Source: Candidatus Latescibacterota bacterium
GTDB taxonomy: Bacteria; Latescibacterota; UBA2968; GCA-2709665
Length of the DNA stretch: 64,000 nt
Direction of reading: 5' to 3'
NCBI GenBank assembly: GCA_965226795.1
Contig: CBDDDZ010000005.1
Span: 1,344,001 to 1,408,000, forward strand
The notes under the pieces are model-generated. The model had not been told where the DNA came from, did no database searches, and worked only from the letters and a program-made list of their open reading frames with translations. Position 1 is the first letter of the stretch, and every line of letters starts with the position of its first letter. Below, piece by piece: positions 18,233 through 63,788 of the stretch. The position numbers and the translations under genes are program-made.

Positions 18233-19660
18233 TTAGACAAGAGCGAACTGCTCTTCGGTTGGTTCCGCTCAGCAATACCACGGCTCGGTGAGGCGGGGAA
18301 GGGATTGGCGGTTCGAGTCAATTCCTGAATCGAACTCTGGGGCCGGGCGGCCCAACAGGTGGTGGACGTACGACTGGATTCTATGGAAAATTTCTCGTCG
18401 GCTGGTGTCTTGATTCTGAAGCCGGGTGACCAACCGGGTGAGTTCGTGTTGGAGCCGATCCAACCGGACATCCGGATGTGCCCACGGATATGACAGGGTT
18501 TCGGGTGCGAAGGTTTCCACCAGGTCCCGAATCTCGGCAAGGCCCAGGAGTCTTGAGCCTTTGGGGATGAGCAGCCGTATCGTGAGCTGTACGGGAGAGA
18601 CGTTCTCGATCAGGTCAAGGCCCGCGAGGGTGTCCAGAAAGCCGGCATAGTGCTCCATGGTGACCCAGGGCGTGAACGGGATGAACGTCGGATTCATGAC
18701 GAGTTCGTGTCGTCGGAAGAGATGCACGACTTCGATGAAGTCGTCGACTGTATGGCCCTTGTCCAACCGCGCGAGGACCCGGTCGTCGAGGGACTCCACG
18801 GCGGTCGTGACAATCGCGCACCCGGTATCTTTGAGGAGGGGCAGATAACGGCTATACCCTAGCAGATGTTCGATTTTGACGGTGATATCGTAGGTGACAT
18901 CGGGAAATTTTTCGTGGAGCCTTGTCAAAACTGGTATGGCGTGGCCGATACCGTTGAAGAAGTCGGGATCACCAAACGTGATGTGGCCGGCCCCCGCGGC
19001 GACCTGTTTCGCAATGTCGTCCAGCACGGTCTCCGGTTGCACAATACGGAATCTGCCCCTGTACACGGGCACCACGGGACAATGGCGGCAGAGATGTTTG
19101 CAACCTCGGCTGGCCTCCGTATAGCCGACGGTTGTGAGATGGCCGTCCTCTGTGGATAGTTGCGCGTATCGGGAGAGGTCCGGCAGGCCTGTCCGGTCGG
19201 GCGGAAGAAACCGCTGCCTGGCCAGGGAAACGACGGGCTCTTCCTGGTCTGGGGTGGCGCTCGAGGCCCCTCGCAGGCGCCTGCAGAGTTGAAGCAGTCC
19301 GTTTTCGAATTCTCCGCCGAGAATGGTCTGGGCGCCCACGCTTCGCAGGAAGGATTCGTTCACGGATGCATAGAGCCCATAGAAACAGAGGTGGGCGTTG
19401 GCATTCTGTTCGCGGGTTCTTAAGGCAAGCGGTACGGCAAGTCGCGTTGCCGTGTGCATTGGCACGTAGAATGCCACCAGATCGGCGTCCCGAACGGCCT
19501 CTTCAGGAAAATCGTCTATTGAAACGTCAGCCAGGACAACGTCGAAGCCCGCCCTCCGCAACCATCCGGCCGGCGAGGCCAAACCGAATGGCTGACGACC
19601 CAATTCGTAGGTGGATACGAGCACGACTTTGAATGGACGCAATGGGGAGATGGTAGGCAT
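18233..19660 (-). CDS. CUAEP-tail radical SAM selenoprotein (Sec at TGA 18271-18269), 475 aa
   Basis: CKHLCRHC (CxxxCxxC) and a B12-binding-like N-terminal domain; the ORF track stops at ...EPWYC, but readthrough of TGA gives C-U-A-E-P-T-E-E-Q-F-A-L-V then TAA at 18235-18233, which is the family-defining tail. Confidence 0.9.
18239..18255 (-). promoter_or_regulatory. Candidate bacterial SECIS element of the radical SAM gene
   Basis: AAGAGC-AGUUC-GCUCUU hairpin; stem starts at +14 and loop at +20 after UGA; G at loop position 2. Confidence 0.7.
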
Positions 19661-60230: not shown

Positions 60231-61202
60231 CTAAAGCGAGAAGACGTATGATGTGCTCAGCTCAATCAGATAGTCCGATGTCAGCTGGCTCTCGTTCACG
60301 TTTTGAATTACGACAATAGGCACACGGAATTCAACGCTGAGATTGTCCAGGATATTGACCCCCAATTCAGGTGAAAGATACAACCACTTCCCTCCCCGTT
60401 CTCTTGTAATCTGACCGAACTGGTAACGGTCCCGTGACGTAATCAGGTTTTTCAGACTCAGCCCGCCATAGAACGAGCCTTCCCCGGTGTACGCTACGGA
60501 GAGTGTGGTGTGCAGTTCGTTTCCGTATTTGTAGCCGTAAATGTTCTGTCTCGTGGTGATGCGGGTGAAGACACCGGCAGAGACGGTAAGGCTTTCAATA
60601 CGATGGAACATACCGATCGCGAAAATCGGGTCCACGCTTCCCGACCCGATCTGCAGATTGTCAGAGAAACGCTCGCCGTATTGATCTCTGGCATTTACGG
60701 ATCCGTTTGCCAGCTTCAATCCGATGCCGAGATTAAGACCGGAAAAGCCCGCTGCGAGCGGTACCGCGTAATTCAACATAGCCACTATATCGCCCAGTCC
60801 CGAGGCATGCCGAACATACTTTCCACCCTCATACTGGTTGTCGTTCTGTCCGCGCAACAGTACCTTTTCGTTGGCTACGGAACGGAAGGGCAGGGCGAGC
60901 GTCAGGCCGAAGCGTTCGGTAATGTCGTGCGAGGCAAATACGGTGGTCGTGGCATTATCCGTCCGTTCGCGATTGACGTTGGGTATGGCGCGGGAACCGT
61001 AGTGGGGGTCAGACAGGAATTCGTAGTCGTAGTGTACGCTGAGCGTCAGTTGATCCTTAACGGCCAGACTATTCTTCATCAGGCTCCCGCCCGGGAGTAC
61101 GGGGCGCCGTCAGCTGACGCCGCCTTGAGCATGGGCGGCGGGGGCCGTGACTATCTGCACTATAAGGAACAGGAAGAGACACCGGGCTGAGAACGGTCGC
61201 AT
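60231..61202 (-). CDS. Outer-membrane beta-barrel (Phenol_MetA_deg-like transporter), candidate selenoprotein with UGA at codon 31
   Basis: The ORF track starts at 61079 with no signal peptide. An in-frame ATG at 61202 (GAGGT RBS) gives MRPFSARCLFLFLIVQIVTAPAAHA-QGGVS-TGA(61112-61110)-RRPVLPGGSL-MKNS; body has SGLGDI, GLKL.NG, QIGSGS.D, YKYGN and a terminal aromatic beta-strand. Confidence 0.72.
61084..61097 (-). promoter_or_regulatory. Candidate bacterial SECIS element of the outer-membrane gene
   Basis: CUCCC-GGGC-GGGAG hairpin; stem starts at +13 and loop at +18 after UGA; loop begins with G. Confidence 0.6.
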
Positions 61203-61371
61203 GCGGGGTTACCTCAATCCGTAGGATATGGTCGTGAGGCGAGAGTCCGGATTTCTAGCGTTGAAATATACCTCACATGCGTCTGGATAGCAAGACGGAT
61301 TTTGTTTCGTGAGACTACATAGAGCCCAAATTTACAGATCTTTACATAACCCGCCGCCAAGCCGTTTTTTC

Positions 61372-61444: not shown

Positions 61445-61518
<74 letters not shown>

Positions 61519-61535
61519 TTTTTGTGGCAGCTTGT

Positions 61536-61613
61536 GGTGGGTGTAGCTCAGATGGTTAGAGCGCCTGGTTGTGGCCCAGGAGGTCGGGGGTTCAAGTCCC
61601 CTCACTCACCCCA
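61536..61613 (+). tRNA. tRNA-His(GUG)
   Basis: G-1, acceptor GTGGGTG/CACTCAC, anticodon arm CCTGG-TTGTGGC-CCAGG, C discriminator, encoded CCA. Confidence 0.96.
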
Positions 61614-63188: not shown

Positions 63189-63788
63189 TTGACAGAAATA
63201 TTCCTGATTGTGGTTGGAATGGGTGTCTCGGCTGCTGTCGCCCAAGCCGATCGGGGCCATGTGCTGGACACGAGTGAAGAGAACATGAAACAAATTGCCA
63301 GCTCTCTCGGGGTACGGTGTACTCATTGCCACACTACGCGGATACCAGATGGAAAACCCGATTTCGAGGCGCCTTCTTTGTTCAAGCAGACAGCCGTCCA
63401 TATGAAGGTTCACTTTGTGGACGGGCTGAAGACAGCGGACGGAAAGACGCTGGACTGCATGTTCTGTCACCAGGGCAAAGCCCGTTTTCTTCCGCGGGAC
63501 CTTAAAGACGCCAAACCGTCCAATTTATCTGAGCGGCTGCCCCGGCGGGAGATTTTCCGGAAAATGAAAGCCATTGAGAAGGCGCTGGGGGTAAACTGTG
63601 AATTCTGCCACGTCAGGCGTGAAGACGGACGCCTTGTGCCAGAGCAGCCGACCAAACATAAGCTGATGGCGAAATTTATGATGGACCACTACGATGGATC
63701 ATTGATCACGTCAGACGGGACGACGGCCTCCTGCGTAACCTGCCACCTGGGTGGGGCGGAGTTTTTGCCCCGTTCAACCGGTGAATGA
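63189..63788 (+). CDS. Secreted tetrahaem c-type cytochrome, reaction-centre cytochrome c (PufC)-like repeats
   Basis: TTG start after AGGAGGAG; signal peptide; CTHCH, CMFCH, CEFCH, CVTCH; two repeats of MK.I...LGV.C..CH...M...C..CH.G. Confidence 0.85.
   Translation: MTEIFLIVVGMGVSAAVAQADRGHVLDTSEENMKQIASSLGVRCTHCHTTRIPDGKPDFEAPSLFKQTAVHMKVHFVDGLKTADGKTLDCMFCHQGKARFLPRDLKDAKPSNLSERLPRREIFRKMKAIEKALGVNCEFCHVRREDGRLVPEQPTKHKLMAKFMMDHYDGSLITSDGTTASCVTCHLGGAEFLPRSTGE

Follow-up and report, generated by a model that had tools for sequence, protein, structure and literature searches.

The gene studied here lies on the minus strand at positions 60231..61202 of the window, which is the whole 64,000-nucleotide stretch of a Candidatus Latescibacterota contig that was analysed. 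It encodes a predicted COG4313-type outer-membrane barrel of 323 amino acids when its in-frame TGA is read as selenocysteine (Sec). The gene starts at the ATG at 61202 and ends in a TAG at 60233-60231. Its minus-strand translation from 61202 to 60231 reads MRPFSARCLFLFLIVQIVTAPAAHA-QGGVS, then a stop, then RRPVLPGG...YVFSL and the terminal stop, and the sole internal stop is the TGA at 61112-61110. A Shine-Dalgarno-like GAGGT (61211..61215, minus strand) stands 8 nt 5' of the ATG. Codons 1-25 (61128..61202, minus strand) encode a signal peptide that ends in AHA; the cleavage site was judged by eye, and relatives have similar N-termini. The TGA (61110..61112, minus strand) is codon 31, or residue 6 of the mature chain, and is the inferred selenocysteine. 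The table-11 ORF call begins at ATG 61079, exactly 41 codons 3' of ATG 61202, and lacks the signal peptide. The first-pass annotation had described this arrangement, a called ORF without a signal peptide and, 41 codons upstream in frame, a ribosome-binding site, an ATG and a signal peptide ending in AHA with a single TGA in between, and both the ORF call and the translation bear it out.

Ten nucleotides after the barrel stop is the gene of a 358-residue beta-propeller lipoprotein with the lipobox VSG-C25 (59144..60220, minus strand), which is the predicted lid of the barrel. RNA contigs cover the barrel and propeller genes and end at 61243 and 61248, just downstream of a sigma-70-like promoter match (9/12; 61265..61293, minus strand). 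The contigs carry neither strand nor level, and together with the promoter match their ends are a weak hint of a promoter. Upstream of the barrel gene, and divergent from it, are tRNA-Arg(TCT) and tRNA-His (61445-61613, plus strand), and beyond these lies a gene for a small multiheme cytochrome c (63189-63788, plus strand).

AlphaFold2 was used to predict the structure of the barrel from 140 alignment rows, with Cys in place of Sec. The model has a pLDDT of 93 and a pTM of 0.89, with residues 1-10 at low confidence (pLDDT 55). Its best structure match is Pput2725 (4RL8; Z 25.7, rmsd 2.5 Å over 255 residues, 11% identity), where residues 13-296 of the model align to residues 2-268 of 4RL8. The second best is FapF (PDB 5O65; Z 23.8, rmsd 2.8 Å, 246 residues), which is also the top match in Foldseek, and the next unrelated fold matches at Z 18.9. 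The match to PF13557 is weak, at 19.8 bits against a gathering cut-off of 22, and the barrel is therefore filed as COG4313-like rather than as a formal member of PF13557; precomputed PF13557 matches exist for several close homologues. No NCBIfam family was found for the barrel at E 0.1, nor for six related Sec barrels at E 0.01, and the Atlas clusters were either unnamed or matched only PF13557 (57% of one cluster). The fold suggests that the barrel may be a transporter. According to the excerpted text of PMC4493636, the N-terminal 14 residues of Pput2725 fill the lumen from the periplasmic side. The segment ahead of strand 1 in our barrel (mature residues 1-25 with a helix at 13-18; 61053..61127, minus strand) is predicted to be a lumen plug that bears the Sec. 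Since the Sec lies on an extension of a Pput2725-like lumen segment, it too would sit in the lumen.

The TGA was found at the same column in many relatives. A paralog in the same genome (contig C5:838366-839307, plus strand; aligned over 838402-839301 at 55% identity) has the TGA at this column and the same hairpin after it, with thioredoxin-like and NHL-repeat genes upstream and a methyltransferase gene downstream. The paralog occurs in 15/15 genomes of the genus. Among 61 related genomes, 21 have a match; 33 of the 38 matches, spread over 17 of these genomes, carry one TGA, and the other 5 stop short of the column. Nineteen of 301 sampled genomes of the Marinimicrobia phylum match (the Marinisomatota loci), and 58 of 66 metagenome loci cover the column. 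The three match sets overlap and include kin. The TGA is thus present in every match that covers the column (33/33, 19/19 and 58/58), as a search for TGA-bearing homologues would find if the Sec reading of the first-pass annotation were right, and it stands there in 36 genomes of two phyla over an identity range of 32-100%. Coding is kept on both sides: relatives have signal-peptide-like sequence 5' of the TGA, and the codons on either side of it change synonymously. Met42, a possible re-initiation site, is not conserved among relatives. Of four read sets, three cover the TGA (two of RNA, each from a separate study, and one other), and none of the three has a variant there.

The first-pass annotation had proposed that Sec is inserted into an exported barrel, which pipelines would cut short, with a nonsense mutation or a sequencing error as the alternative. 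Mutation and error are excluded because the TGA is kept across two phyla, in the paralog and in independent reads. Sec insertion is strongly supported by the conservation of the TGA, by covariation in the hairpin that follows it and by the Sec machinery of the genome.

The hairpin, CTCCC-GGGC-GGGAG (61084..61097, minus strand), spans +13 to +26 from the TGA with a G-first loop at +18. The SECIS criterion places the loop 16-37 nt downstream with a G in its first two positions, and the barrel hairpin falls within it. In line with the bSECIS model as given in PMC13188914, it has 17 nt from UGA to loop, a 4-nt loop, a 5-bp stem, and G followed by G or U in the loop. The model needs -7.5 kcal/mol or lower, against which the bare 14-nt hairpin is borderline at -7.0 (-8.1 with flanks, and other pairings compete). 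Cys orthologues, the usual companion criterion to bSECIS, were not found among close barrel relatives. In single-sequence folding the hairpin region did not rise above shuffles (z -0.39 to +0.28 in 4/4 windows), and the CC/GG pairs of the stem are forced by Pro-Gly-Gly codons and are therefore not evidence for a SECIS. The case for Sec is therefore comparative.

The comparison was made over 72 distinct contexts and shows covariation at silent sites of the stem. Positions +15:+24 are paired in all 72 (CG 41, TA 21, TG 6, AT 2, GC 2) and +18:+21 in 69. Counting Watson-Crick pairs only, the two score 66/72 and 67/72, and no other pair of third positions exceeds 45/72. When the first 42 contexts were shuffled 20,000 times, the observed covariation was reached 0 times, by a statistic that ignores kinship. 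The Leu codon at +13 is CTN in 72/72 contexts, compared with 663/963 elsewhere in these genes, and the codon at +25 is AGY in 59/72 and TCN in 0/72, compared with AGY in 270/759 elsewhere. On these counts, codon choice in the barrel genes is skewed toward keeping the stem. The selD gene of this genome has a TGA followed by CAGTCC-GGTC-GGACTG, with the loop at the same +18 register. Judged by this comparison, the hairpin 3' of the barrel TGA is a SECIS. The GC-rich, G-first-loop hairpin at +13 that the first-pass annotation saw is therefore real and conserved, and it is close in geometry, as was claimed, to that of a radical SAM gene in the window, where the stem starts at +14.

The genome also has the selABCD genes that this reading needs. 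SelA, selB and selD score above their cut-offs and tRNA-SeC (selC) is present, with selA, selB and tRNA-SeC clustered on contig C5. Among carrier genomes, selA was found in 16/17 and 18/19, and both exceptions have a TGA-containing selD, one of them with selB. The background frequency of selA is high (57/61 and 219/301), so this co-occurrence discriminates little. Altogether the UGA of the barrel gene is almost certainly decoded as selenocysteine, a case that is built on comparison of genes.

Other selenoprotein genes were seen in this genome. The radical SAM gene (window 18236-19660, minus strand; TGA 18271-18269) encodes a CUAEP-tail selenoprotein, NF040546, with 609 bits against a cut-off of 500, and is a member of a known family. 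Four further probable selenoproteins with SECIS-like hairpins lie at C3:28214, C3:20738, C4:882826 and C5:1052168, all on the minus strand. Three of these are copies that read FFRGTW-U-RRS and one reads HN-U-PTC, and both kinds look peroxiredoxin- or thioredoxin-like.

The close database homologues (n=60) are mostly truncated. Seven are full-length, with Trp in 5, Ser in 2 and Cys in none at the Sec column, which at face value would favor a TGA that does not encode Sec. The TGA is present in genomes and contigs that share 94-95% identity with one of the Trp proteins, so the Trp forms are likely TGA codons miscalled under code 4. Decoding of the TGA as Trp was rejected on this ground and two others: TGA is the commonest stop here, ending 1016 of 1973 long open frames, and is therefore a normal stop in this genome, and a CCA-reading tRNA-Trp is the only one that the genome has. 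In a quick tree (SH-aLRT on 79 rows, without a clade test), the two Ser forms branch within the Sec clade. Three more distant homologues have neither Cys nor Sec in the N-terminal segment and, with the two Ser forms, indicate that the selenol can be lost. The first-pass annotation held that Trp or Ser in close homologues would speak against Sec. Such homologues do exist on the face of it, but the Trp forms are likely miscalls and the Ser forms are nested. Its statement that related barrels often have Cys here does not hold for close homologues, and applies only to a distant sister group at ~19% identity. G393 and G394 (Latescibacterota, without the TGA) were considered as non-Sec orthologues and were rejected, being QTCSC-type relatives.

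Thiol and selenol motifs recur at the N-terminus of the wider family, which reads QxCC, CxC or CxxC. The nearest large group has QxCC/CxC N-termini with Cys aligned 2-3 positions before the Sec. A profile search found further TGA forms with the hairpin in the same register, AVA-U-RRPTLPG and DVCAG-U-SNPNLPGG. Relatives of the second carry CxxCxxP, seen as CAGCSNPNLP, in 74/120, and by these aligned motifs the two make a clean Sec/Cys pair for the CxxU group. A third form, GQ-U-PL-U-SNP (UxxU), is present in 11 of the 12 loci fetched from 13 matches, with ArsR (9/11), CopZ-type (8/11) and MerT (5/11) genes as neighbors. The CxxC, CxxU and UxxU groups form a separate clade, all at ~19% identity to this barrel, and in the CAGC sister group a Cys lies three residues before a shared PxLP motif. 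Local profile alignments with the Sec masked anchor on PxLP and place the Sec on the second Cys, whereas global ones open a gap instead. A link through Cys between the sister groups and the lone-Sec column seems plausible. In the lone-Sec subfamily itself no His or Cys is conserved and several Arg/Lys are, and in 37 of 38 family rows the chain that follows the Sec is free of Cys.

Several observations were made on these relatives. In the UxxU barrels of Marinisomatota (L178-L189), one SECIS apparently serves two UGA codons, and MerT-HMA, CopZ-type and ArsR genes adjoin. One CxxU barrel (L170:759-1748, minus strand) adjoins a gene for an HMA-like/thioredoxin fusion. The relatives of the CxxU barrel include the large CAGCSNPNLP group, some of it named Myxococcota, and 45 motif-less proteins, mostly N-truncated calls, that may hide a TGA. 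Seven barrel-thioredoxin fusions (P0069, P0070, P0074, P0076, P0078, P0079 and P0180) are database forms without a signal peptide, and these records are possibly truncated at a Sec codon.

The propeller gene adjoins the barrel gene in 15/15 loci of this copy, 19/19 Marinisomatota loci and 56/64 metagenome loci, and in 0/9 paralog loci. A TlpA/ResA-like thioredoxin gene neighbors the barrel gene in 9/9 loci of the paralog, in 8/19 from Marinisomatota and in 0/15 of this copy. Because propeller and thioredoxin adjacency are divided between the copies, this suggests that an ancestral thioredoxin-barrel-propeller unit was split between the two. The predicted complex of barrel and propeller scores 0.67 and the best of 3 controls 0.00, on a scale whose mark is reached by 116/157 solved pairs and 2/215 mismatched pairs. 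At least 77% of the contacts recur between runs, and the partner pLDDT is at least 86; the model starts after the TGA and holds no Sec. The contacts join mature residues 43-53, 89-103 and 280 of the barrel, in long loops that are expected to face outside, to a conserved DADxxG loop of the propeller. The model lends support to binding between the barrel and the propeller lipoprotein, a conserved operon partner that is predicted to cap it.

For the barrel we thus have a conserved TGA, a covarying hairpin, complete Sec machinery, a COG4313-like fold model and a conserved propeller gene. We propose, with about even confidence, that it is a 12-stranded outer-membrane channel with a selenium-tipped plug that captures a soft ligand during uptake. 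SelB would, almost beyond doubt, bind the hairpin and insert Sec. Once the signal is cleaved, the Sec-bearing segment would very probably fold into the barrel lumen, like the N-terminus of Pput2725. The propeller lipoprotein on the outer loops would likely serve as a lid that collects cargo. The lone selenolate, which has no Cys partner in the chain, would bind either a thiophilic metal ion or a compound of sulfur or selenium, and a TlpA-like thioredoxin in the periplasm would keep the selenolate reduced or free the adduct; taken jointly, these last two steps could equally well hold or fail. Metal-handling genes adjoin 0/109 tallied lone-Sec subfamily loci (the loci overlap, and most are 1.5-4 kb). 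No specific high-affinity selenium transport system is known in prokaryotes according to a 2026 review (PMC13188914). More tentatively, a superfamily of small outer-membrane channels may have pore plugs tipped with Sec, in three or more formats (lone U, CxxU and UxxU), in which the lone-Sec subfamily, without a Cys form and under a dedicated propeller lid, could possibly be a capture channel for soft metal or selenium.

Sec may also be inserted into a channel that is otherwise of the usual COG4313 type and carries an organic solute, such as a hydrophobic compound or an oligosaccharide, with the selenol only redox-gating the plug. Uptake through a lateral site would be expected of such a channel. 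The excerpted text of PMC4493636 associates the characterised COG4313 channels with taking up hydrophobic molecules, the conserved residues here are Arg/Lys and not His, and starch genes surround some of the Marinisomatota loci (CBM20-esterase in 4/19 and sugar ABC permease in 3/19, with amylase, GH97 and GH43 too). Carbohydrate neighbors are, however, a minority and are found in 0/26 Latescibacterota loci, the chain has no Cys with which a gating bridge could form, and the wider family keeps thiol motifs in the N-terminal segment. This makes the organic-solute channel doubtful.

We also think it unlikely that the UGA and SECIS are a selenium-dependent expression gate, which would let the protein be produced only in the presence of Sec-tRNA and for which it is of little consequence what residue is inserted. 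A stop as early as codon 31 would leave the cell without the protein, which would suit such a gate, as would the Ser forms nested in the clade and the lack of any Cys orthologue seen. The Sec nevertheless lies within the mature chain, in a strongly conserved S-U-R-R-P motif, and the CxxC, CxxU and UxxU of the sister groups stand in the same register and therefore point to chemistry over gating.

The rank of FapF among the fold matches raises the possibility of a pore like FapF that exports or anchors a secreted partner, for example the neighboring FG-GAP/ASPIC-UnbV protein. An ASPIC/UnbV gene does neighbor the barrel gene in 16/19 loci from Marinisomatota and in 42/64 from metagenomes, but in 0/26 Latescibacterota loci, this one included. 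One FG-GAP/ASPIC-UnbV neighbor carries its own secretion C-terminal sorting domain, and a propeller, once folded, would not fit through a pore of 12 strands. An export pore is quite improbable on this evidence. Least of all do we credit a TGA that is not Sec, whether mutation, error, Trp codon or true stop with re-initiation at Met42, since the Trp records and the unremarkable, partly codon-forced hairpin stand against a TGA shared by two phyla and the paralog, synonymous change around it, a Met42 that is not kept and reads without a variant.

The barrel almost certainly represents a real selenoprotein family, absent from the catalogue checked, in which a known kind of recoding stands in a new setting. 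The location of its Sec would be unusual, in the predicted plug of a channel in the outer membrane. Gene callers store its members as signal-less 282-aa proteins or as Trp-miscalled ones. The natural series of U, S, CxxU, UxxU and CxxC in one fold, together with the predicted lid, makes the contribution of selenium to surface ligand capture directly testable in sponge-associated and marine bacteria.

Table 1 of PMC13188914 (119 families) lists two outer-membrane barrel selenoprotein families, neither of them COG4313-like, and the present family is absent from it; it may still be listed in a groundwater survey that this review cites, in BSepDB or in Haft and Tolstoy 2025, whose families are included in the same table. 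The GSU2204 family (NF041027) and the FCYXU-type TonB-dependent receptor (NF049945) in that table are likewise exported Sec barrels, but they are different families that gave no match here, and the lone-Sec subfamily has no heme motif and no CxxU. The literature searched, including excerpts of PMC13326102, PMC12013277 and PMC8318568, gave no description of the lone-Sec barrel family and no Sec-containing COG4313/PF13557 member. The COG4313/PF13557 channels (Pput2725 4RL8; SphA, TcpY) have the same predicted fold and likewise begin with a segment N-terminal to strand 1, to which the barrel adds 12 Sec-bearing N-terminal residues and a conserved lipoprotein partner. The amyloid secretion pore FapF (5O65) shares the barrel fold at 14% identity, and no fap-like genes were found among the annotated neighbors of barrel loci. 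BtuB has 22 strands. In the BtuB-BtuG system of Bacteroides a beta-propeller lipoprotein likewise sits at the surface on an outer-membrane barrel (PMC10404256), but BtuB is TonB-dependent, whereas the barrel described here is a small COG4313-type channel and its complex with the propeller is a prediction.
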